Shown: positions 128 to 8,791 of the stretch, piece by piece
Numbering within the stretch: position 1 is the first letter of the stretch
How the letters are laid out: each line of letters begins with the position of its first letter
IMG/VR virus record: IMGVR_UViG_2740892488_000005
Span: 1 to 8,791 of that record
Length of the DNA: 8,791 bases
Strand: one strand, 5' to 3'
Source: a virus
Taxonomy: Duplodnaviria; Heunggongvirae; Uroviricota; Caudoviricetes
Position numbers and translations under genes: made by a program
Notes under the pieces: model-generated
What the model was told of the DNA's origin: nothing
The model's input: the letters and a program-made list of their open reading frames with translations, nothing else
Databases searched by the model: none

Positions 128-200
128 AGGGCTGGTCAGGCCCGGGCTGGTCTTTCCTGTTTTGAGCTGGTCAGGCTCATGGTCAACGCTGGTCAGGCGT
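128..200 (-). repeat. Tandem array of three stem-loops with conserved 7-nt loop (TGGTCAG on plus, CUGACCA if transcribed leftward) and covarying 4-5 bp stems
   Basis: Loops at 133-139, 168-174 and 190-196. Stems GGGC/GCCC (129-132/140-143), TGAGC/GCTCA (163-167/175-179), ACGC/GCGT (186-189/197-200). Same element occurs inverted at 2191-2205 and 4615-4631. Confidence 0.6.
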
Positions 201-291
201 GGTACTTCCTCCGGTCTTTCCCTGGTGTCACGCTGCGGGTTTGGCCTCTCCTGTTGGGGACTCAGGCACAGCGATAAAACCTGGCTGTGTG

Positions 292-319
292 AAAAAATGG
301 CCCATCGTGCGGACTGGGC
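292..319 (-). terminator. Possible intrinsic terminator on the minus strand
   Basis: On the minus strand GCCCA / 10-nt loop / TGGGC (plus 300-304 pairs with 315-319), then C and a T6 run (plus A-run 292-297). Stem is short, so tentative. Confidence 0.3.
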
Positions 320-764
320 AAAGACTAAACACAGCAAATTGATGATGGGCGCCGGAATCGAACCGGGTAACGGGCAGGGAGTTCCCGTTAAACACCTGTT
401 CACCACAACCGGGAGCGCACTCCGCCATTTCAAAATTTAACGACAAAGCTCAAAGTTGAGTCGATGAAGTGCGCTCTCGTGTTGTAGCCAGGACTCTTCC
501 CTGGTGGTCACACCGTATCGCCTTGATGGTGAATCAATCGCTCATACCTGGCTGTGGCTTGCACATTCCGGCTACCTGCTATGGAGACAACGCGTTAAGG
601 CTCCGCTTCCATCCAGACCGCTTCGACACATGTGCCATATGCCGGTGAAGTCTTTCCCTCTGTCACCGTGTTGGCGCCGACGCGCAAAATTTGGTGCCGT
701 CTTTCCGGCTGTCAGAACGTGTTTCTGAACAACTGCCGCTGGGTAAGCGTTGTTGATGAAAGTG

Positions 765-820
765 ACTTTACAATTTGTATTTGTAATGGTCAATGTGTTT
801 TTAAAAAATAATTTGTAGTG
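765..820. promoter_or_regulatory. OL-like operator cluster downstream of the repressor gene
   Basis: AT-rich block with TTTGTA at 774-779, 780-785 and 812-817; palindrome TACAA-T-TTGTA at 769-779; 9-mer ATTTGTAAT (779-787) also present at 1372-1380 in the repressor/cro intergenic region. Confidence 0.4.
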
Positions 821-911: not shown

Positions 912-1304
912 CTATTTTGTCTGGTTTTTGGCTTCAAGTAGTTCTTTTAGCAGTAGATCGAAGTGCTCTCTTTTTTCTTTTAGCTCATTGATTAATTTAT
1001 TTTTTTCGCTCTCAGGCAGTCCTCTGAATAGTTGCAGTAGAGCCTGTTCTTGCGGGGTTAGTTCTTGATTGTAATTACCCGGGTGTAGTGTGGATTCATC
1101 CAAATATTCCCCTTCATTCATGAAGAAAAAATGAACAGGGTATCCGGTCACTTTTGCTAGCTTGTCTAATTTATCTTTTCTTGGAGTTACCCCATTACAC
1201 CATGCCTGAACTGATTGAGCCGTAACCCCAATATGGCGAGCTAACTCAGATTGAGACCAGCCTAAGTCTTTTAGAATCCGTTGTAGTCGGCTAGCAAAAG
1301 CCAT
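912..1304 (-). CDS. Prophage CI-like repressor, XRE-family HTH, 130 aa, with no LexA-like S24 peptidase domain
   Basis: ORF 912..1304 (-). N-terminal HTH signature (LGWSQSELARHIGVTAQSVQAW) and helical C-terminus; divergent from a cro-like gene across an operator-rich intergenic region. No Shine-Dalgarno within about 15 nt upstream of the ATG, so possibly a short-leader or leaderless mRNA. Confidence 0.8.
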   Translation of the reverse strand: MAFASRLQRILKDLGWSQSELARHIGVTAQSVQAWCNGVTPRKDKLDKLAKVTGYPVHFFFMNEGEYLDESTLHPGNYNQELTPQEQALLQLFRGLPESEKNKLINELKEKREHFDLLLKELLEAKNQTK

Positions 1305-1424
1305 GTTTTTCGTTTTTTGTGTTCATACCGTAAGGATACAAGGTTTAATTGTAGGGAGCATTGCAAATATAATTTGTAATTACAGTTATTGTTTGTAATG
1401 ATGACGCGGACACAAGGAGTCCAT
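1305..1424. promoter_or_regulatory. Divergent promoter/operator region between repressor and cro-like gene (OR-like)
   Basis: AT-rich 120 bp intergenic region with perfect 10-bp palindrome TGTAATTACA (1375-1384), further TTTGTA copies at 1373-1378 and 1392-1397, a TTGCAA -35-like hexamer at 1361-1366, and AAGGAG SD at 1414-1419. Confidence 0.55.
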
Positions 1425-1655
1425 ATGGATAAACAACTGCAAGACAAAATTCTTTCCGTAATGAGTCAATCCGAGTTAGGGCGGCGATTAGGGAAAAAAC
1501 CACAAACGGTAAGCCTCTGGTTCAAAGGACGGGTTCCCGGTGAAGAGGTTTTGCGCACATCTGAAGCTCTTGAATGGCGCGTGACCCCTCATGATCTTAG
1601 ACCGGATCTTTACCCAAACCCAGATGACAGCTTGCCTAAAACGGAAGCAGCTTAA
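1425..1655 (+). CDS. Cro/YdaS-like HTH regulator, 76 aa
   Basis: ATG at 1425 preceded by AAGGAG (1414-1419). The track ORF starts at 1389 but that ATG lies inside the operator repeats with no SD. HTH (SQSELGRRLGKKPQTVSLWF) and the C-terminal HDLRPDLY motif typical of Cro/YdaS-type prophage proteins. Confidence 0.75.
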   Translation: MDKQLQDKILSVMSQSELGRRLGKKPQTVSLWFKGRVPGEEVLRTSEALEWRVTPHDLRPDLYPNPDDSLPKTEAA

Positions 1656-1713
1656 CTGTTGGTGAGCCCCAAATCTGATTAAGCGTAATCAATTTTTAGC
1701 GACAGGAGACGCT

Positions 1714-2190
1714 ATGGAAAACCAAGAGGAATTACAAAAAGAGATTTTGACCTGGGCGGCAAGGGCAGGGCAGGAACTCGTCACGATTGAAATCTGCCGG
1801 GCCTGGTTCAGTCAGGGACGCAATGATGAGTTGAGACTACATGAATTTGAGGACGCGGACGGCAACGTGGACTGGAGAGCCATCAACAACAATCGGCAGA
1901 AAATCTTTCGCTGGTTACGTGGCGAGACAACGGCGGCGCGCCGAAAAACTCAGGTGCTGGCCAGTGTGATGAAAGCCGTGCTACCCGCAGAACGGCGGGC
2001 ACGTCTGGAGTCGCCGGGCGATCCCGTTTTGCTGGCAACGCTGGCGGCAAAAGAAGGGGTGGAAGCGATTAACGCTGTACATCTCCACTTCGCGCCAGAG
2101 TTAACTATTCAGGAAATTGACGAAGCAATAGCGGCGCTGGTAGCGACGCGAGGAGCAGTGATACGCACTGCGCAAGACCACCATGCATGA
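1714..2190 (+). CDS. YdaT-like (CII-analog) prophage regulator, 158 aa
   Basis: ORF 1714..2190 with AGGAG at 1703-1707. Contains the motif NNRQKIFRWLRGETTAARRK, which I recognise from Rac-prophage YdaT-family proteins; sits immediately after the Cro/YdaS-like gene as in Rac-type immunity regions. Confidence 0.65.
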   Translation: MENQEELQKEILTWAARAGQELVTIEICRAWFSQGRNDELRLHEFEDADGNVDWRAINNNRQKIFRWLRGETTAARRKTQVLASVMKAVLPAERRARLESPGDPVLLATLAAKEGVEAINAVHLHFAPELTIQEIDEAIAALVATRGAVIRTAQDHHA

Positions 2191-2229
2191 GCGCCTGACC
2201 AGCGTTTAACTTATACCGAGGAAAGACCG
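2190..2229 (+). promoter_or_regulatory. Stem-loop plus conserved SD leader cassette (copy A)
   Basis: Directly after the TGA at 2188-2190: stem GCGC/GCGT (2191-2194/2202-2205) with loop CTGACCA (2195-2201), 9-nt spacer, then ACCGAGGAAAGACC (2215-2228) and ATG at 2230. Same architecture at 4615-4651. Confidence 0.55.
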
Positions 2230-2388
2230 ATGTTAAGACATATTGACCGCATTACCTGGCGTAACGGCTGGCACCTGAATGGACGCCCGGCACATGTTGC
2301 AGAGATCCGCCCCATATTCGATGGCCGCGTCGCAGCTGCACGTTCTGTATGGGAAAAGTACGAAGAAGAAAAAAGCGAAACTGCGTGA
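2230..2388 (+). CDS. Hypothetical small protein, 52 aa (below the ORF-track size cutoff)
   Basis: ATG 2230 to TGA 2386-2388, translating MLRHIDRITWRNGWHLNGRPAHVAEIRPIFDGRVAARSVWEKYEEEKSETA. Supported by the strong SD (GAGGA) and by the identical 14-nt leader that precedes the 136-aa gene at 4652. Confidence 0.45.
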   Translation: MLRHIDRITWRNGWHLNGRPAHVAEIRPIFDGRVAAARSVWEKYEEEKSETA

Positions 2389-2451
2389 GCAAAATCTCTC
2401 TGGCGCTGCCTATGAGGCTGGCTGTCGCGTTCTCTCAGAGGCTTTGGGCAT

Positions 2452-3042
2452 ATGAACATCCTCCCGTTACTTGATAGACCCATAGCCTTCCAGAGAAGTT
2501 TTATCCGTCTTGAAATGGGCGTGACTGCCGCATTGTTTCTGTCGCAGTTGACGTACTGGACAAACAGAACAACTGACGACGGCTGGGTATATAAAACCCA
2601 GGATGAGTGGGAAGAGGAAACAGGGCTTTCACGATACGAGCAGGAGGGCGCGCGCAAAAAACTACGTGGTCTCGGCGTCTTGCTGGAACGTAAACAGGGC
2701 TTGCCTGCCAGGCTGTACTACAAAATCGATAATGATGTGTTGTGCCAGCTACTTACGTCCGCATACAAGGATGCGGAAAAACCACATACAGGTGAGGGGA
2801 AAACCACCAGGCCTGTACGTGGAAAACCAACAAACATTCTTACAGAGAATACTACAGAGATTATTACTGATGGTGAATCGGCTGACGCCGACACCCAACA
2901 ACCTGCCGACCAGAGAATAAATTATCAGGTGATACTCGATACCTATCACGAGATTTTGCCAGAGATGCCACCAGTGAAAATCCTCACTGACGGCAGAAAA
3001 AAAACACCTTCGCACTTTCTGGAAAAAATTCAATTTCAATGA
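2452..3042 (+). CDS. Phage replication initiation protein (replisome-organiser type, winged-helix N-terminal domain); reading frame probably disrupted near its 3' end
   Basis: ORF 2452..3042 (196 aa); N-terminal region resembles phage O-like/DnaD-like initiator winged-helix domains and lies directly upstream of a DnaB-family helicase. An adjacent frame stays open from 2978 to 3208 and ends overlapping the helicase start, suggesting a +1 frame change at A8 (2997-3004) or A6 (3023-3028). Confidence 0.6.
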   Translation: MNILPLLDRPIAFQRSFIRLEMGVTAALFLSQLTYWTNRTTDDGWVYKTQDEWEEETGLSRYEQEGARKKLRGLGVLLERKQGLPARLYYKIDNDVLCQLLTSAYKDAEKPHTGEGKTTRPVRGKPTNILTENTTEIITDGESADADTQQPADQRINYQVILDTYHEILPEMPPVKILTDGRKKTPSHFLEKIQFQ

Positions 3043-3197
3043 GTCCCGTTGGCGGGCCTATCTGGAATTTATCGGTGGCAATTGTCGCTGGATGCTGGAG
3101 GACAGGCCAAATGGCAGGGGAGGATTCTGGCGGCGTAAAAATCTTGATTATCTGATTACCGAACGCTGCTATGTTTCGGTCAAGGAAGAACGCGCAA

Positions 3198-4613
3198 ATG
3201 ATAAATAACGCGATTGCACTGTACAGCGTTGACGCAGAACAGGCTGTTCTGGGCTGTCTGATGCTGAATACCGACCACGACAGAACCAATGCGGTATTTG
3301 CGTTACTGAAACCGGAAACGTTTTATATCAATGCGCATCAGGTTATCTACCGGGAGATCAAAGGATTATTTCAAGCTGATAAACCAACTGACCTGATAAC
3401 ACTGACCGAACTGATGGAATCGAAGGGGCTGTATGAGCGCGTGGGGGGATTCGCATACCTGGCTGAAATGAGTAAGGCGGCGATTCCGGCCTCAATGGTC
3501 AACTACGCGAAAATTGTACGTGAAAAAGCCATTCTTCGTTATGCCGTGGAAAAGTTGAATTCTTGTCTGGAGATTATGATCCAGCCTGCAGATATGACTG
3601 CTACTGACAGGATCACCGCCGTTCAGCAAGTGATTGGGCAGGTGGCCGAACATTCCCGTACCGGGCATAAGGGCGGTTTGCGTCCGGCAAGTGAAGTCGT
3701 CGATGACTGGATAGATGACCTTGAGCGCCGTTTCAATGATCCAGCACATGCAGCCGGACTAACGCTCGGAATCGAAAGCCTTGATCGCTTAATGGCACCA
3801 AAGCAGGCGTTAAGAGGTTCATTGGTCGTTATTGGTGCCCGGCCAAAAATGGGCAAGACAGCCGCGTTTAATAAAATTGCGGTGCATTTTGCTCTGAATC
3901 ATCGTTTGCCGACGCTGGTATTTAGCCTGGAAATGACTGACAGAAGTCTCATTGAACGCATGGTTGCGCAGGAAGCAAAGGTCAATTCGGAGATTTTTTA
4001 TCTTGGCCCTAACGATGAATCTGAATTGAGTCTCGCAATAGCAAAGGCGGGGGAGATTGCCGAATCCAACATGATGATTGACAGCACGGCAGGTGTAACC
4101 CTTGCGCATATTGTCGCTGAATGTCGAAAAGTTAAACGGATGCGTGGCTCGGTTGGCCTGGTGGCAATTGACTATTTGACGCTGATGAAGACCGAATCGG
4201 CAGAGCGTAGGGATATTGCGTATGGCGATATCACAACCGGTTTGAAGAACCTGGCAAAAGAGCTGGATTGTGTTGTGGTCCTGCTGACGCAACTCAACCG
4301 AAAGCTTGAAGAACGTGCCGATAAGCGGCCTAACCCGAGCGACAGTAAAGATACCGGGCAGATCGAACAAGATTGCGATGTCTGGATTGGCCTCTATCGT
4401 GATGCTGTTTATAACGAAAATGCCGACCCAAATCTCATGGAAATGTTGCTACGTCTGAACCGCGAAGGACCATCGGGAACAGCCTATGCCCTGATGAAAA
4501 ATGGCTCAGTTATTGATATCAGCGATGAGGAGGTTTATCGCCTTACCAACGACCGCTCAGAAAAAAATAAACGTTATTCCCGTAGCGATAATTCTCGCAC
4601 AAATGAATTTTAA
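3198..4613 (+). CDS. DnaB-family replicative DNA helicase (phage-encoded, P22 gp12-like)
   Basis: Track ORF 3171..4613; preferred start is ATG 3198 with AAGGAAG SD at 3183-3189. DnaB N-terminal motif (SVDAEQAVLGCLML), Walker A (GARPKMGKTA), SLEM motif, and LTQLNRKLEERADKRPNPSDSKDTGQIEQDCDVWIGLYRD matching the DnaB H3/H4 region. Confidence 0.9.
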   Translation: MINNAIALYSVDAEQAVLGCLMLNTDHDRTNAVFALLKPETFYINAHQVIYREIKGLFQADKPTDLITLTELMESKGLYERVGGFAYLAEMSKAAIPASMVNYAKIVREKAILRYAVEKLNSCLEIMIQPADMTATDRITAVQQVIGQVAEHSRTGHKGGLRPASEVVDDWIDDLERRFNDPAHAAGLTLGIESLDRLMAPKQALRGSLVVIGARPKMGKTAAFNKIAVHFALNHRLPTLVFSLEMTDRSLIERMVAQEAKVNSEIFYLGPNDESELSLAIAKAGEIAESNMMIDSTAGVTLAHIVAECRKVKRMRGSVGLVAIDYLTLMKTESAERRDIAYGDITTGLKNLAKELDCVVVLLTQLNRKLEERADKRPNPSDSKDTGQIEQDCDVWIGLYRDAVYNENADPNLMEMLLRLNREGPSGTAYALMKNGSVIDISDEEVYRLTNDRSEKNKRYSRSDNSRTNEF

Positions 4614-4614
4614 C

Positions 4615-4651
4615 CACGCCTGACCAGCGTGAAATAACCGAGGAAAGACCA
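4615..4651 (+). promoter_or_regulatory. Stem-loop plus conserved SD leader cassette (copy B)
   Basis: Directly after the helicase TAA (4611-4613): stem CACGC/GCGTG (4615-4619/4627-4631) with loop CTGACCA (4620-4626), 5-nt spacer, then ACCGAGGAAAGACC (4637-4650) and ATG at 4652. Confidence 0.55.
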
Positions 4652-5062
4652 ATGACCACCACTCCAGGCAAATTAGAGTACCCGTCGGACAAAGGACACA
4701 TAGACGACGGTAAAAACTATCTCGACGTCATTTTGTGGAATATGAACGTCGGGCCACGTGCGCGCACTCGCGCGGTTTTTGTGCCAAGACCTAAAGCAGG
4801 CAATTTTTCAACCCCTGCTAAGCCTGCCCGTCAGGCATCCGTAGCCGCAGCGCCAGCAGTGAAACGTAAGGGCAAAACGCACACCGGGATCGCGATTCGC
4901 AGAAATGGTGAGCGGCAAGTGAAACTCCACGAAACAGCGACAACCTGGTGTGCCTCACCGCATGAAACTTACGACAAGATAACCGGGCAGCGCATTGGCG
5001 CGCCTGGTCGCTGCCGCCTGCTGCTGAGTTCCATCACTCCGATAGCAAAGAAAGGGGCGTGA
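4652..5062 (+). CDS. Hypothetical protein, 136 aa
   Basis: ORF 4652..5062 with the conserved SD leader; enterobacterial-style codon usage (CTG, GCG, CCG rich); no competing ORF on either strand. No family recognised. Confidence 0.6.
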   Translation: MTTTPGKLEYPSDKGHIDDGKNYLDVILWNMNVGPRARTRAVFVPRPKAGNFSTPAKPARQASVAAAPAVKRKGKTHTGIAIRRNGERQVKLHETATTWCASPHETYDKITGQRIGAPGRCRLLLSSITPIAKKGA

Positions 5063-5063
5063 T

Positions 5064-5300
5064 ATGGCCGGGCAATCAGATTACCTGCCGCCCGGCTTAC
5101 CACACAACCGCGCCAAATGGCCCCAGGAATACCAGCTTAAAGAGCACTACGACATGCGAGCGGCGGCGCTGATCCGCCAACTCTTTGAGAAACGTATTCC
5201 GAGGGGAAGCGTGATTGAGCAAATCGGAATGACGCCAGATACGTACCGGGAATTTTTCAGAGAGCGTCTGAACTACTGGAGAGGGGTGATGGAACAATGA
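5064..5300 (+). CDS. Hypothetical protein, 78 aa
   Basis: ORF 5064..5300, starting 1 nt after the previous stop; purine-rich AAAGGGG upstream. Its stop overlaps the next start in an ATGA arrangement. Confidence 0.55.
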   Translation: MAGQSDYLPPGLPHNRAKWPQEYQLKEHYDMRAAALIRQLFEKRIPRGSVIEQIGMTPDTYREFFRERLNYWRGVMEQ

Positions 5301-5608
5301 AATACAAACGGTGGGTGCGTGCGGAAGTCGTAATCATCAAACAATGTGCGGGCAGCATGACAGTTGAACGTATAGGGCAGCTTATTGGCAGAACCGGTGC
5401 AGCGGTACGCACAAAAGCGCGCGAGCTGAAAATCTGTATGTATCTGCGGGGTAATTATCACCAGTCAGTGAAATACCTCCAGGAAGATATCGAGCTGGCA
5501 AGGGAATTACATCAGTCGGGTATTAATCGCCAGGATATCGCAGAAAAACTCGAAATGCCGATCGGAGCGGTGAATCAGTTTGTTTATTTTGAGCGGAGAA
5601 TTTCATGA
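5297..5608 (+). CDS. Hypothetical DNA-binding protein with two HTH-like segments, 103 aa
   Basis: ORF 5297..5608; ATGA overlap with the upstream gene. Two helix-turn-helix-like stretches (MTVERIGQLIGRTGAAVRTKAREL and INRQDIAEKLEMPIGAVNQFV); the HTH assignment is inferred from sequence pattern only. Confidence 0.5.
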   Translation: MKYKRWVRAEVVIIKQCAGSMTVERIGQLIGRTGAAVRTKARELKICMYLRGNYHQSVKYLQEDIELARELHQSGINRQDIAEKLEMPIGAVNQFVYFERRIS

Positions 5609-5829
5609 AAGAACTTTTTCTTGCATTTGTGCCCCGGTTTATTAATGACCAGATCGCACTGACTGATAATGGTGAACAATATGAAATTGCCTGCAGCATG
5701 GTGGATGTGAATCCTGGCGAACGGTATGACGCGATGTGTGACCTGAAAATATTTACCTGGCTGGGTTGGGCTATTCCGTGTGGAGAACCAACCAATATTC
5801 GTCCGTTTGAGAGCAGGGAGGCTGTATGA
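5605..5829 (+). CDS. Hypothetical protein, 74 aa
   Basis: ORF 5605..5829; ATGA overlap with the upstream stop, part of the coupled small-gene chain. Confidence 0.5.
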   Translation: MKELFLAFVPRFINDQIALTDNGEQYEIACSMVDVNPGERYDAMCDLKIFTWLGWAIPCGEPTNIRPFESREAV

Positions 5830-5942
5830 GTGAATTGAAAATACGTCGCAAGGCAATAGCACGCGTTAAAAATCTATTACCAGTGCCTGTCAAATATCGT
5901 TTTTGTGGTGGGAATGTACGGATTGGTACGGATGTATGGTGA
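5826..5942 (+). CDS. Possible small ORF, 38 aa
   Basis: ATG 5826 overlapping the upstream stop (ATGA), stop TGA at 5940-5942, translating MSELKIRRKAIARVKNLLPVPVKYRFCGGNVRIGTDVW. Only positional evidence. Confidence 0.3.
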   Translation: MSELKIRRKAIARVKNLLPVPVKYRFCGGNVRIGTDVW

Positions 5943-6016
5943 TTGCGGAGTGACGTAAAACGAATCGTTGTGGGTGTAATATCGTCAATATCATTGGTTT
6001 CCCGGAGGGAAAGGAC

Positions 6017-6238
6017 ATGTTTGGCGATAAACTGGAGTTACCACGGAACGGGCGGATAGTGCTCTATATTTCAGATTACAAAGTAACCCGGGCTGAGGTG
6101 TTGGAACCGGAAAAACATCTGGTCACGTTACCGGACATTATTGAGTTGTATAAGCGGGTCGGATATGTGGACTTGCATCGCGATGATGTTCCCGTTGAGT
6201 GTATGGAATGTGAACACCGGAGGTTTGAAGTTGATTGA
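6017..6238 (+). CDS. Hypothetical protein, 73 aa
   Basis: ORF 6017..6238 preceded by GGAGGGAAAGG; followed about 90 nt downstream by a terminator-like hairpin plus T7. Confidence 0.5.
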   Translation: MFGDKLELPRNGRIVLYISDYKVTRAEVLEPEKHLVTLPDIIELYKRVGYVDLHRDDVPVECMECEHRRFEVD

Positions 6239-6329
6239 ATTGACTTAGAAAAAGTCCGGGGCTATAGTTTCCGCGCAGCCGCAAAATCGGTTGCCGGGAT
6301 TGGCGTCCCGGATATCTAAGTGACGCATA

Positions 6330-6349
6330 GCCGCGTTAGCGGTTTTTTT
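6330..6349 (+). terminator. Putative intrinsic terminator closing the small-gene operon
   Basis: GCCGC (6330-6334) / loop GTTA / GCGG (6339-6342) followed by T7 (6343-6349). Short stem, moderate confidence. Confidence 0.45.
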
Positions 6350-6448
6350 ATGTGTTAGGCACGGCCACATTCGCATTATGGTGGGCTGTGTGGGGGCTTC
6401 TGTGGAAGCGCCGGGTTCACTTAGCCGGTTACGCCAACCCTGCACAGC

Positions 6449-6481
6449 TCACCACCAGATGATTGGCGTCGCTGGTGGTGA
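6449..6481. promoter_or_regulatory. Perfect 10-bp inverted repeat immediately upstream of the antirepressor start
   Basis: TCACCACCAG (6449-6458), 13-nt spacer ATGATTGGCGTCG, CTGGTGGTGA (6472-6481); right arm contains the Chi octamer GCTGGTGG (6471-6478). Antirepressor SD AAGTGAGG at 6495-6502 and ATG at 6511. Confidence 0.4.
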
Positions 6482-6510
6482 TGAAAAAAACACTAAGTGA
6501 GGCCACTGCG

Positions 6511-7300
6511 ATGACAGTCCAAATATCTGCGGAATCCCTTTCTCCGCTACATCATAACCAACTTCCCGTCATCACTACTGAATTGCTTGCCAGTTTGTAT
6601 GGCACGGAAGTAAATGGTATCCAGCAAAACTTCAAGCGCAACATCGCCAGATTTGTCGTAGGAAAGCATTTTTTTTAAGCTGGAAGGTAATGAATTACGC
6701 GACTTCAAAAACAGACTGACAGATAGTCAGTCAGTTGCTAAACATACCCGATCCCTCATTCTCTGGACAGAACGCGGCGCAGCTCGCCATGCCAAAATGC
6801 TGGAAACAGAACAGGCCTGGGAAGTTTTCGAAAAGCTGGAAGATTGTTATTTTAGCCAGCGTCCAGAGAGGCGGAGTACAACTACCGATGACCGTACTCC
6901 CTTGCGTGATGCCGTTAATATACTGGTCGGCAAGAAAGGCATGATGTATCCCGATGCCTACACCATGATTCATCAACGCTTCGCCGTCTCTCACATAGAA
7001 CAACTGTCACAGACGCAAATGTTAGAGGCGATTGAATACATCCACTGCCTGCTACTCGATGAAAATCACCCAACCATTCCAGATTTTTCTTTTATCACCA
7101 CTATCAAAAATGGAAAAGTGACCGGGATGCGCCATGTTGCCAAAGGCGAACATCTGATGACCTTTGACGCTTTCAAAGAGATCGCTGAGCGGGCAGGGTA
7201 TCTGGTGATCCACAGCGACAATCTGCGAAGTATGACACTGGATAAATTGATGGTAATGGGGAAAAAGTCGGCTATATCCGTTGCTAATTCAGCATTTTGA
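6511..7300 (+). pseudogene. Phage antirepressor-type regulatory protein, interrupted by a frameshift in a T8 run
   Basis: N-terminal part in frame 1 (6511-6678, ends GKHFF-stop) and C-terminal part in frame 2 (track ORF 6797..7300, open from 6677). Removing one T from T8 (6669-6676) gives a continuous ~262-aa protein with the conserved stretch GKHFFKLEGNELRDFKN...SLILWTERGAARHAKMLETEQAWEVFEKLEDCYF, which I recognise as antirepressor-like. Confidence 0.65.
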
Positions 7301-7427
7301 CAGGTTGTTTGGGGCGGAAATACTCTATTTGCGCTTAAAAAGGTATTTGACCACGACCAGCACGAGACCGAATACCTCTGTCAAAGTACCGCCCATATAA
7401 AACAGTTACATATGCACTTGATGACTA

Positions 7428-7459
7428 AGCTGGCACCAGGTTAACACCTGGCGCCAGCT
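7428..7459. other. Strong near-perfect hairpin between convergent genes (14-bp stem, one mismatch, 4-nt loop)
   Basis: AGCTGGCACCAGGT (7428-7441) / TAAC / ACCTGGCGCCAGCT (7446-7459). No U-tract on either strand, so not a canonical intrinsic terminator. Confidence 0.4.
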
Positions 7460-7589
7460 TGAAGGAGACTTCAGTTATTGGTTTCTGAGGAAAGCGATTC
7501 TTGAAAGGGTCATTTGCGTCTGGCAGTCGACCATTTTCTTGACTTCAGCATCTGTTCCCTGCATTGAAACTTTACCGCACATAGCATCC

Positions 7590-8294
7590 TTAGTTTTGAT
7601 CCACTGACGCTGAGAAGGCAGCAAATCTTTTTTTCTTCGCCGGGGTTAACTTGCTCCAGACGGTACTCAAATCAGAGTCGGCATTCGCAAATGCCATTCG
7701 GGACTGATCAAGGTTGTCAGCTTTTTGCGGCTGAAGTTGTGCCTGTCTCTCTATTTGCTTCTCCGCCTCATACTTAGCCTGTTCTTGCGCCCTGAGTTGC
7801 ACCTGTTGTTCCGCTTCAATTTGACTCTGTTGGGCATCCTTAGCCTGCTGGATTTTCTGCTGCTCAACGATCGGGGTGATAATGGAAAGCGATGTCAGTA
7901 AAGCGGCGCCCACTGATATCGGATTATCAGTAGAGGTTTTTACAAAAACGTTTTTCTGATCGTCGGTCGCCTGCACGGTGTAGGTGATACGTTTTGAAAA
8001 GGCGTTTGCGTTGTTCTCCAAAAACAGGCTTTCCATTTGCTTATCGAGATTACGATTAAAATTCTTTCTGTAAGCATCTGAAAGCTGGACGTACTCGTTC
8101 GCAGATAGAGTCATCGTCACGGTCCCTTCACAAGTTTTCATTGTGCTGCCCGTGTCACTTGATGTTGTGGAGATCTCAGAGATGGCTAGTTTGATCTTGT
8201 CCAGTGTGCTTCGTTTGGTCTGATTAGTGACATCAGGGTATTTATCGACCTGTTCAGAGAGTCCTTCATAAGCAGATTTTTTTAATAAATCCAT
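7590..8294 (-). CDS. Hypothetical protein, 234 aa: N-terminal domain, central hydrophobic helix, Gln/Glu-rich coiled-coil C-terminal region
   Basis: ORF 7590..8294 (-). Hydrophobic stretch ISVGAALLTSLSIITPIV followed by a heptad-like Q/E/A-rich segment. Frame stays open upstream of the ATG until a stop at plus 8358-8360, inside the IS end, so the native 5' end or promoter may have been displaced by the IS insertion. Confidence 0.55.
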   Translation of the reverse strand: MDLLKKSAYEGLSEQVDKYPDVTNQTKRSTLDKIKLAISEISTTSSDTGSTMKTCEGTVTMTLSANEYVQLSDAYRKNFNRNLDKQMESLFLENNANAFSKRITYTVQATDDQKNVFVKTSTDNPISVGAALLTSLSIITPIVEQQKIQQAKDAQQSQIEAEQQVQLRAQEQAKYEAEKQIERQAQLQPQKADNLDQSRMAFANADSDLSTVWSKLTPAKKKRFAAFSASVDQN

Positions 8295-8420
8295 GAGAGC
8301 TGACTGGGTTATTTCCGAAGAACAACCGATCTCATCTTTTTTGTTATCTGAAGTGGTTTACTGAATTTGGCCACCTGAACAGAGGTGATATGCTCACCTC
8401 AGAACAACACAGGTGCCATA

Positions 8421-8721
8421 ATGAAAAAAAGAAATTTCAGCGCAGAGTTTAAACGCGAATCCGCTCAACTGGTCGTTGACCAGAATTACACCGTGGCAGA
8501 TGCAGCCAGCGCTATGGATGTCGGCCTTTCCACAATGACGCGATGGGTGAAACAATTACGTGATGAGCGGCAGGGAAAACACCAAAAGCCTCCCCTATTA
8601 CCCCGGAACAAATTGAAATCCGTGAGCTCAGGAAAAAGCTACAACGTATTGAAATGGAAAATGAAATATTAAAAAGGCTACCGCGCTCTTGATGTCAGAC
8701 TCCCTGAACAGTTCTCGATAA
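8421..8721 (+). pseudogene. IS3-family transposase OrfA (HTH plus leucine-zipper regulator), apparently frameshifted twice
   Basis: [53 protein letters not shown] in frame 3 (from 8421); expected continuation [27 protein letters not shown] in frame 2 from 8597; expected C-terminus [14 protein letters not shown] in frame 1 ending at TAA 8719-8721. Frame changes coincide with an A4 run (8576-8579) and the A5G slippery-site region (8671-8676). Confidence 0.65.
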
Positions 8722-8791
8722 TCGGGAAACTCAGGGCGCGTTATCCTGTGGCCACTCTCTGCCATGTGTTCGGGGTCCATCGCAGCAGCTA
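8676..8791 (+). CDS. IS3-family transposase OrfB, N-terminal part (3' end beyond the window)
   Basis: Frame 3 open from 8676 to the window end with a typical OrfB N-terminus ([16 protein letters not shown]). Confidence 0.6.

Follow-up and report, generated by a model that had tools for sequence, protein, structure and literature searches.

A portable translation-initiation cassette of early genes in Enterobacterales temperate phages and a predicted antisense small RNA that may control it

Why should unrelated early genes of a single prophage begin with the same short hairpin and the same ribosome-binding leader? The question is raised by a stretch of viral DNA of 8,791 nucleotides (nt), hereafter the window, taken from IMG/VR record IMGVR_UViG_2740892488_000005, in which a DnaB-like replicative helicase gene (3198–4613, plus strand) is separated from the gene of a 136-amino-acid (aa) protein (phrog_5148; 4652–5062, plus strand) by a cassette consisting of a hairpin and a Shine-Dalgarno leader. 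A lambdoid prophage that lies beside a tRNA-Leu gene downstream of pgsA in Escherichia coli is the source of the window, which corresponds to its early region (immunity and replication). A first-pass annotation had described the cassette, here called copy B, as the second of a pair whose other member, copy A, precedes the gene of a 74-aa protein (phrog_2465, from 2230), and had proposed that what is conserved is the cis element rather than the gene behind it. We find that copy B is a member of a family of portable cassettes for the translation initiation of early genes, and we lean, without great confidence, toward the view that it is a trans target of an antisense small RNA (sRNA) of about 135 nt, which would cover its Shine-Dalgarno sequence and AUG.

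Copy B starts 1 nt downstream of the TAA stop of the helicase gene (4611–4613) with a hairpin at 4615–4631, in which the arms CACGC (4615–4619) and GCGTG (4627–4631) enclose the loop CTGACCA (4620–4626). The spacer AAATA (4632–4636) leads to the 14-mer leader ACCGAGGAAAGACC (4637–4650), which is followed by a single A and then by the ATG of the 136-aa gene (4652–4654), the start codon thus lying within the cassette. When counted up to the leader core the variable A-rich stretch covers 4632–4639, and the leader or translation-initiation region (TIR), GAGGAAAGACCAAUGAC (4640–4656), comprises the Shine-Dalgarno GAGG, the AUG and two nt of codon 2; all of these parts are on the plus strand, and the stop, hairpin, spacer, leader and ATG are, base for base, as the first-pass annotation had them. 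Copy A (2187–2232, plus strand) has the hairpin TGAGCGC-CTGACCA-GCGTTTA (2187–2209), which folds with seven pairs, followed by ACCGAGGAAAGACC (2215–2228) and an ATG at 2230; the 14-nt leader and its 1-nt gap to the ATG are indeed the same in both copies, and CGCCTGACCAGCGT, also common to both, is found at 2192–2205 in copy A. The two downstream proteins are dissimilar (BLASTP E = 5.3), in line with what had been claimed. Within the window the 14-mer occurs four times at up to three mismatches, against 0.52 expected, two of the four being further near-copies, and CCTGACCAGC occurs five times against 0.47 expected, a count reached in 0/200 shuffles; because these counts exceed expectation, chance is excluded as the source of the repeat. 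Both copies are therefore real, but they are not a pair: the element is a multi-copy family, and in the window itself the minus strand at 129–226 has three more hairpins and two leader-like copies that had been missed. Folded by itself, hairpin B is weak (−7.5 kcal/mol in a 66-nt context, z = −1.5), and we take it to be real because of its covariation across relatives rather than its stability. It is not an intrinsic terminator, as AAAUAACCGAGG follows the stem and the terminator scan makes no call there.

The family is widely distributed within one bacterial order. A pattern scan found the hairpin loop together with the leader in more than 120 IMG/VR contigs, usually two to four times per locus and on both strands of divergent operons, and in individual phages the loop (GACCA core) and the leader GAGGAAAGACC are repeated 5–10 times. 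The carriers comprise about 13 Enterobacterales species, phage BUCT708 and Pectobacterium phage ZF40. In 120 loci there are 639 occurrences of the leader sequence GGAAAGACC, where rough arithmetic gives an expectation of about 9; an ATG follows after 0–1 nt in 297/639 cases, and the 175 cases with no ATG within 30 nt lie largely in non-coding arrays on the side of pL, the promoter of the leftward operon. With one genome taken per species, multi-copy matches were found in Enterobacterales only, namely in Serratia, Citrobacter, Enterobacter, Raoultella, Hafnia, Shimwellia and Rosenbergiella and also in Escherichia whittamii, and the single matches elsewhere, outside Enterobacterales prophage early regions, numbered about 10, near the roughly 7 expected by chance (again by rough arithmetic). 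The combination of hairpin and leader is thus not a common one scattered without linkage over unrelated contexts.

Copies are restricted to early operons and are always oriented with transcription. The complete genome of BUCT708 has 10 copies, all in its early region at 28.9–37.0 kb and all co-oriented with the genes, and in ZF40 a variant leader, GAGGCAAGACC, occurs 8 times within the first 11 kb, 8/8 co-oriented, and nowhere in the remaining 37 kb; the late regions of the two phages contain no convincing copy. In the same prophage to the left of the window, transcription-oriented copies precede the second pL gene and an excisionase-like gene, and one more, in the same orientation, lies within the 5' untranslated region (5'-UTR) of the first pL gene. 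The system is absent from the Rac prophage of K-12. A search of the open-access literature for the leader, the hairpin and their complements as literal strings returned nothing relevant, and the motif is not mentioned in the ZF40 genome paper.

The proposal that conservation attaches to the cis element, not to the gene behind it, is borne out beyond this prophage. Hairpin and leader stand before many non-homologous genes in the more than 120 viral contigs, and in an unbiased sample, whose loci were picked by homology to the helicase and not by the motif, the cassette after the helicase stop is kept at 55–70% helicase protein identity while the gene that follows it differs. Relatives in this sample without the cassette have the next gene joined by a TGATG overlap, and this translational coupling in its absence fits a role of the cassette at independent translation starts. 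Among 330 distinct cassettes, 76% have an upstream hairpin, the spacing from the end of its stem to AGG is variable (mostly 9–15 nt), 79% have 0–1 nt between leader and ATG, and 110 (33%) have ACC as the second codon. In general layout a cassette begins with a short hairpin whose loop presents GACCA, continues with 9–15 variable bases and ends with the leader GAGGAAAGACC(A)AUGAC. Since conservation of the leader spans −13 to +5 and takes in the second codon, the leader is more than a Shine-Dalgarno sequence.

Two features of this family indicate how it may be read. To characterize the hairpin, sequences upstream of leaders were gathered regardless of pairing; 74% of the cells in this set are paired, and the covariation score is 0.297, compared with 0.147 for shuffles (0/500) and at most 0.145 for slid controls. 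Among the stems are GCGC/GCGC, ACGC/GCGT, GAGC/GCTC, GGGC/GCCC, GCAC/GTGT and ACGG/CCGT, and relatives with as little as 55% DnaB identity still have the loop core GACCA (CTGACCA, CAGACCA, TCGACCAA). A fixed loop on compensating stems implies that the hairpin is read through its loop and is not a double-stranded protein site. The leader, for its part, drifts by lineage in the helicase-chosen sample (GGAAAGACC, GGCAAGACC, GGCAGACC, GGCAAAACC), and all start-associated leaders of a locus share one variant, being all-AGGAAAGACC, all-AGGCAAGACC or all-AGGCAAAACC; among the common locus profiles listed, none mixes AGGAAAGACC with AGGCAAGACC or AGGCAAAACC. Such uniformity of leaders at non-homologous positions within a genome points to co-evolution with one shared trans-acting partner.

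A candidate for this partner is encoded by the phages themselves. In each phage a single leader copy, located in the 5'-UTR of the first pL gene, does not serve as a ribosome-binding site; it falls inside a predicted gene of about 135 nt on the opposite strand. Aligned from 34 diverse loci, the region contains a pair of hairpins with GACCAA loops and another hairpin flanked by A7 and, on its other side, by a weaker U tract; a leader copy is present that no start codon follows, and an ATTATA/AGTATA box stands just upstream of the Shine-Dalgarno sequence of the first gene. The opposite strand has a putative extended −10 promoter (TGATATAAT, TGATATACT or TGTATACT, the −10 often being in the extended form TGnTATAAT), a single-stranded UUGGUCUUUCCUC, two hairpins both with UUGGUC loops, and an intrinsic terminator with up to 7 U. 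Both a TATA[AC]T 30–39 nt upstream and a terminator 60–90 nt downstream accompany, at fixed distances, 62 of 739 distinct reverse-complement leader contexts, and 639 of the 739 have neither the −10 nor the terminator. For the predicted sRNA of the E. coli prophage (positions 17590–17727 of locus L001, with the −10 sequence TATACT at 17575–17580) the computed fold has −57 kcal/mol (z = −6.4). In an alignment of 31 sequences 91.7% of the cells of the two hairpins are paired, 16/17 pairs have a compensatory change and the covariation score is 0.559, against 0.242 for shuffles (0/500); the stem of the terminator covaries too. The structured RNA is the antisense strand, because that strand has 60 G·U wobble pairs against 8 A·C cells and its fold is on average 17 kcal/mol more stable than the sense fold, as holds in 34/34 sequences.

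A covariance model of this RNA finds one copy per phage locus containing the region, including lineages outside the seed alignment (77–86 bits); it matches genomes of Serratia, Raoultella, Enterobacter, E. whittamii and Shimwellia, and has no match in Rac or in the loci of chance hits. The window itself is matched at 1–70 (61 bits, E = 1e-11) by a 5'-truncated copy: its plus strand begins with the 3' 70 nt of the predicted gene, the 5' half of which lies to the left, and includes the 3' arm of hairpin 2 (1–9), hairpin 3 (CCGAAUGGU-UUGGUC-GCCGUUCGG, 14–37) and the intrinsic terminator GGCCCGC-CUUGU-GCGGGUC with U5 (45–68), which was called by the terminator scan. No Rfam family matches the predicted sRNA, and a 2025 review of phage sRNAs contains nothing resembling it. 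In many relatives the terminator (45–68 in the window) has A7 upstream and a short U tract downstream, flanks with which it may also end pL transcription before the first pL gene. In ZF40 (locus L124) a homologue of the first pL gene (MKAPEITITLYIH...) at 4910–5211 on the minus strand is left without annotation, and gp08 as annotated (4919–5407, GTG start) runs across the predicted sRNA region in a different frame and is probably a miscall.

The complementarity between this RNA and the cassettes is extensive. Its seed GUCGUUGGUCUUUCCUC is complementary to GAGGAAAGACCAAUGAC of copy B (4640–4656) over 17 nt with one G·U pair, a stretch that runs from the Shine-Dalgarno sequence through the AUG to the second base of codon 2. 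The computed duplex has −32.0 kcal/mol, against a background mean of −13.2 (sd 4.0), and ties the minimum for the plus strand from 1400 to 8300; the seed duplex with copy A has −27.1, those with two copies of the leftward operon −34.5 and −32.9, and those with other start sites −9 to −19 kcal/mol. The target loop CUGACCAG is predicted to form 6–7 base pairs with either UUGGUC loop (−8 to −9 kcal/mol). The preference for ACC at codon 2 can be understood from this pairing, because AUGAC pairs with GUCGU of the seed. Moreover, because the sRNA is antisense to a cassette-like 5'-UTR, its seed and loops stand in antiparallel order for the leader and hairpin of any cassette. Duplex scans for a sense-strand RNA partner within the window gave chance-level matches only.

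The two partners also vary together. In all three lineages the variant in the pL 5'-UTR copy, though that copy is not a ribosome-binding site, agrees with that of the remaining copies: the sRNA of ZF40 has GGUCUUGCC and the leaders of that phage read GGCAAGACC, and in the third lineage (loci L250–252) the sRNA carries GGUUUUGCC and all seven leaders are GGCAAAACC, so that the three leader variants (E. coli type, ZF40 and L250–252) each match the sRNA-encoding copy of the same genome.

Several points weigh against control by the sRNA and have to be set beside this evidence. The predicted promoter of the sRNA has a conserved −10 only, with a poor −35, and a simple promoter scan makes no call for it. 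The complementarity of the sRNA to the pL 5'-UTR is automatic, so the case for action in trans rests on concerted evolution and architecture; a general duplex scan with the whole sRNA, which is dominated by pairings of the GC-rich terminator, does not single out the cassettes, and only the seed-restricted scan does so. The fold predicted for ZF40 leaves the anti-leader partly sequestered, and its hairpin 2 is without UGGUC. Wobble pairs in the target hairpins have no strand bias in the unbiased set (7 versus 6), in which an earlier count of 8 versus 1 failed to hold. Co-inheritance by lineage, for example with the 74-aa protein, would be equally able to explain the concerted variants if the actual partner is a protein that co-evolves with them.

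From the computed signals we infer that the sRNA is produced, that it pairs in vivo and that it represses, with a timing and a decoy as follows. The UUGGUC loops of the two sRNA hairpins would kiss the target loop CUGACCAG and nucleate pairing, after which the seed would pair with the leader from the Shine-Dalgarno sequence through the AUG; the resulting duplex would block 30S binding, so that the downstream gene would be repressed and its mRNA possibly destabilized. Predicted targets are the 136-aa gene, the 74-aa gene behind copy A, and excisionase-like and exonuclease-like genes of the leftward operon. In a lysogen, with pL repressed, the convergent sRNA promoter would be unobstructed and the sRNA would silence leaky early transcripts, and after induction transcription from pL would interfere with the sRNA promoter. 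Once pL fires, an array of motifs on its transcript may in addition titrate the sRNA as a decoy. This array (129–226, minus strand, the transcribed strand of the leftward operon) is made up of the hairpins GGGC-CUGACCA-GCCC (129–143), GAGC-CUGACCA-GCUC (164–178) and ACGC-CUGACCA-GCGU (187–202) and the leader-like AAACAGGAAAGACC (149–162) and ACCAGGGAAAGACC (213–226), and relatives have homologous arrays.

The cassette might instead be self-contained and have no trans factor, its leader being simply an efficient, unstructured A/C-rich ribosome-binding site, its copies identical by descent and recombination, and its hairpin, placed after the upstream stop codon, an insulator or, following a cut by RNase E in the A/U-rich spacer, a stabilizer of the upstream cistron. 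That the cassette sits exactly in intergenic gaps at 0–1 nt from the ATG, that its spacer is A-rich and that TGATG translational coupling replaces it in relatives would all suit such a part, but the fixed loop with covarying stems, the concerted lineage-specific leader variants, the second-codon bias, and the conserved copy away from a start codon together with the non-coding arrays would be left unexplained, and we consider this account unlikely. The same loops could also be sites for an RNA-binding protein, of phage or host origin, that bridges GACCA motifs as CsrA bridges GGA and so controls translation; it would bind the hairpin loop, −6 to −2 and +2 to +6, with the pL array as its sponge and the conserved 74-aa phrog_2465 protein as the candidate. 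A cassette has three GACCA motifs and the pL leader up to 9 within about 250 nt, the variable spacing between hairpin and leader would be tolerated as it is with CsrA, and among DnaB relatives the 74-aa gene and the leader coincide in their presence, a co-occurrence that is, however, confounded by shared ancestry. The 74-aa protein is without a Pfam domain, its AlphaFold model (pLDDT 87, a beta-hairpin and two helices) has no PDB match at E < 0.6, and a GACCA-binding protein does not explain why one copy is enclosed in a unit of promoter and terminator whose structured strand is the opposite one; we regard it as distinctly unlikely. CsrA-type sites proper are not present, as the ZF40 leader GAGGCAAGACC has lost GGA and the hairpin loops carry GACCA.

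The co-orientation of the copies with transcription in both divergent operons would also be expected of nut- or put-like antitermination sites; the hairpin would then take the part of boxB and load a factor onto RNA polymerase in the two early operons. The pL leader does contain terminators, the hairpin loop resembles P22 boxB (GCGCUGACAAAGCGC), and pL-proximal hairpins with GAAAGA loops resemble lambda boxB. On the other hand no boxA-like CGCTCTT(T)A stands 5' of hairpin A or B. The conserved early genes include no small arginine-rich N-like protein (the product of the first pL gene is acidic), and the only antiterminator assigned by Pfam or PHROG is a distant Q. Leaders are bound to start codons at a distance of 0–1 nt, and the array follows the first pL terminator instead of preceding it. 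On these grounds lambda-type antitermination sites are very improbable. Least probable among these alternatives, in our judgment, is that the cassettes are linkers at the level of DNA, shared sequences at module boundaries that promote homologous exchange of early genes and have no RNA function. The same cassette of about 45 nt does join the conserved helicase gene to many downstream genes, but neither the compensatory stem changes, nor the strict orientation and the within-genome identity at non-homologous positions, nor the complementarity to a structured antisense RNA would follow from such a role. Because the downstream genes vary, recombination at the cassettes probably does happen, more likely as a by-product than as their function.

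Other readings were considered and set aside: extended pairing of the leader to the 16S 3' end or to helix 32–33, a Chi-like GCTGGT, integron attC-like core sites, a sigma-54 or sigma-70 promoter, and mimicry of tRNA or RNase P CCA. GGAAAGACC, which is found for example at 4642–4650 of the window, is identical to positions about 2056–2064 of 23S rRNA, the A2058 region; this identity is broken by the ZF40 variant and is probably a coincidence.

Antisense-RNA control of phage early genes is already known as a kind, and although the sRNA gene is previously undescribed, what would be unusual beside the known cases is the dispersed, portable target tag. The proposed system would work most like C4 of the P1/P7 immI region with its a and b elements, also a phage small RNA in which two short complementary elements, in loops or single strands, occlude the ribosome-binding site of an early or immunity operon; the extra upstream target copies of C4 (a1/b1) parallel the pL array. 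It differs in that neither the predicted sRNA nor cassettes A and B match the C4 models (RF01695, RF03163), and in that C4 has one downstream target in its own transcript, whereas the predicted sRNA would be cis-antisense to one site and act in trans on 5–8 dispersed cassettes of both divergent operons. The window also contains a separate known antisense immunity module of the P1 type, upstream of an ORF6N-domain gene, at 6262–6459 on the plus strand, where Rfam c4-a1b1 (6262–6314), isrK (6275–6349) and C4 (6374–6459) match above gathering score. The kissing-loop antisense controls CopA/CopT, RNA I/RNA II and hok/sok use YUNR U-turn loops and have a single target. By analogy the proposed system would share with them recognition loops of 6–7 nt, covarying stems and a loop kiss that gives way to a linear duplex, here on the TIR, and a YUNR sequence is found in both partners (CUGA in the targets, UUGG in the sRNA).

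Likenesses of a more limited sort are found among other phage elements. Lambda OOP and P22 sar are short terminator-ended antisense RNAs that lie opposite an early transcript and lower the gene that they overlap (PMC12197685). The predicted RNA is likewise a short terminator-ended antisense RNA of a temperate phage opposite an early transcript, but OOP and sar act only on the overlapped transcript, whereas here the motif of the overlapped 5'-UTR is repeated before unrelated genes, which implies a trans regulon. The stoperators of mycobacteriophage L5 are, like the cassettes, asymmetric short intergenic sites oriented with transcription; they are double-stranded DNA sites for the immunity repressor, whereas covariation here points to RNA, and the TTACAATTTGTATTTGTAAT-type operators of the window are unrelated to the cassette. 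In cluster K mycobacteriophages a conserved 13-nt motif, SAS, is found just upstream of many start codons, mostly outside structural genes, with a subset preceded by an inverted repeat, and its function is given as still unproven (PMC12699233). The likeness of SAS and ESAS to the cassette is one of function and architecture only (a motif at starts, outside structural genes, with an inverted repeat before a subset), and the sequences differ, the SAS consensus being GGGATAGGAGCCC and the cassette leader GAGGAAAGACC; ESAS are 17-nt imperfect inverted repeats, whereas the cassette has stems of 4–6 bp and a fixed loop of 7 nt. The leader ACCGAGGAAAGACC falls outside the SAS consensus GGGATAGGAGCCC at up to two mismatches, and hairpin arms of 4–7 nt are set against repeats of 17 nt. 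The hosts are Actinobacteria for SAS and Enterobacterales for the cassette. We know of no complementary sRNA that has been proposed for SAS.

The pL side of the window has further non-coding elements. Just upstream of the motif array an intrinsic terminator (290–314, minus strand) closes a pL-proximal non-coding RNA, the 3' end of which (290–399, minus strand) resembles RprA (UUGCUGUGUUUAGUCUUUGCCC and the terminator; 36–37 bits, the gathering score being 70), and ZF40 has an equivalent of this element. A tRNA-like T-arm (CCCGGTTCGATTCCGGG then CGCCCATCA) at about 341–366 (minus strand) of the same non-coding region is kept in ZF40; for this stretch ARAGORN calls no tRNA, and Rfam gives a weak tRNA-Sec-like match only (19 bits). 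Two pL-proximal elements, GACAG-N2-GGAAAGAC (644–667 and 693–715, minus strand), each preceded by CTGACAG, present GAAAGA in the loop of a hairpin with covarying stems, GCCG-GAAAGA-CGGC in the window and GCCCG...CGGGC or TGCGG...CCGCA in relatives, and are boxB-like in shape. We treat this element as distinct from the leader, though related to it, because ZF40 keeps GGGAAAGAC there while its leaders are GGCAAGACC.

At least 80% of the window is present at about 99.9% identity in 415 of 5,426 complete E. coli genomes (about 8%), and isolated phages have no nucleotide-level match to it except via an insertion sequence (IS) element. Its pL-like promoter, TTGACC-17-TAAAGT (765–793, minus strand), overlaps an operator repeat, TTACAATTTGTATTTGTAAT, and repeats of this type flank the cI-like repressor gene (912–1304, minus strand). 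A Cro/YdaS-like gene (1425–1655) and a CII/YdaT-like gene (1714–2190) precede the 74-aa gene, which is frameshifted in the window, and an O-like gene (from 2452) lies between the latter and the helicase gene; downstream of the 136-aa gene come the gene of a Pol III theta-like protein and then further small genes. Compared with E. coli S14 the window has only seven single-base indels (at 64, 351, 1313, 2369, 2997, 6669 and 7628), all in homopolymers, and the apparent frameshifts that they cause in the 74-aa gene (from 2230), the O-like gene (from 2452), the ORF6N gene (6463–7300) and an LprI-like gene are likely long-read homopolymer errors of the source assembly and not real pseudogenes. The LprI-like gene is split by a fragment of an IS3-family element (ISEc52/IS911-like orfA; 8349–8791), and in E. 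coli S14 the same IS is located elsewhere in the prophage. At 5985–6016 (plus strand) CATTGGTTTCCC is complementary to GGGAAAGGAC, the Shine-Dalgarno region of an open reading frame that starts at 6017, the ribosome-binding site of which would be sequestered by this local hairpin.

We put forward as a tentative proposal, which we think possible but rather short of probable, that a widespread group of temperate phages of Enterobacterales runs a post-transcriptional immunity circuit composed of a constitutive sRNA, a portable two-part tag and an inducible pL sponge. One constitutive sRNA, encoded opposite the pL 5'-UTR, would silence a regulon of unrelated early genes, namely those of the excisionase, the recombination exonuclease and the conserved 74-aa protein and the genes behind the helicase; the tag, a kissing hairpin with a seed-matched TIR, would travel with the genes as they are shuffled; and the pL motif array would be the sponge that lifts the block upon loss of the repressor. 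If this is correct, the RNA would represent a new family of phage sRNAs and the first case known to us of a temperate-phage sRNA with a dispersed, modular trans regulon in both early operons. A tag of about 45 nt and one sRNA, with at least three seed variants, would make a compact orthogonal part for synthetic control, and the same arrangement would offer a testable idea for the unexplained SAS/ESAS motifs of mycobacteriophages. For the phages themselves it would account for the identical 17-nt translation start on unrelated early genes in hundreds of prophages of E. coli, Serratia, Citrobacter, Raoultella and Pectobacterium, and would provide a handle on the leak-proof silencing of toxic early genes in lysogens.

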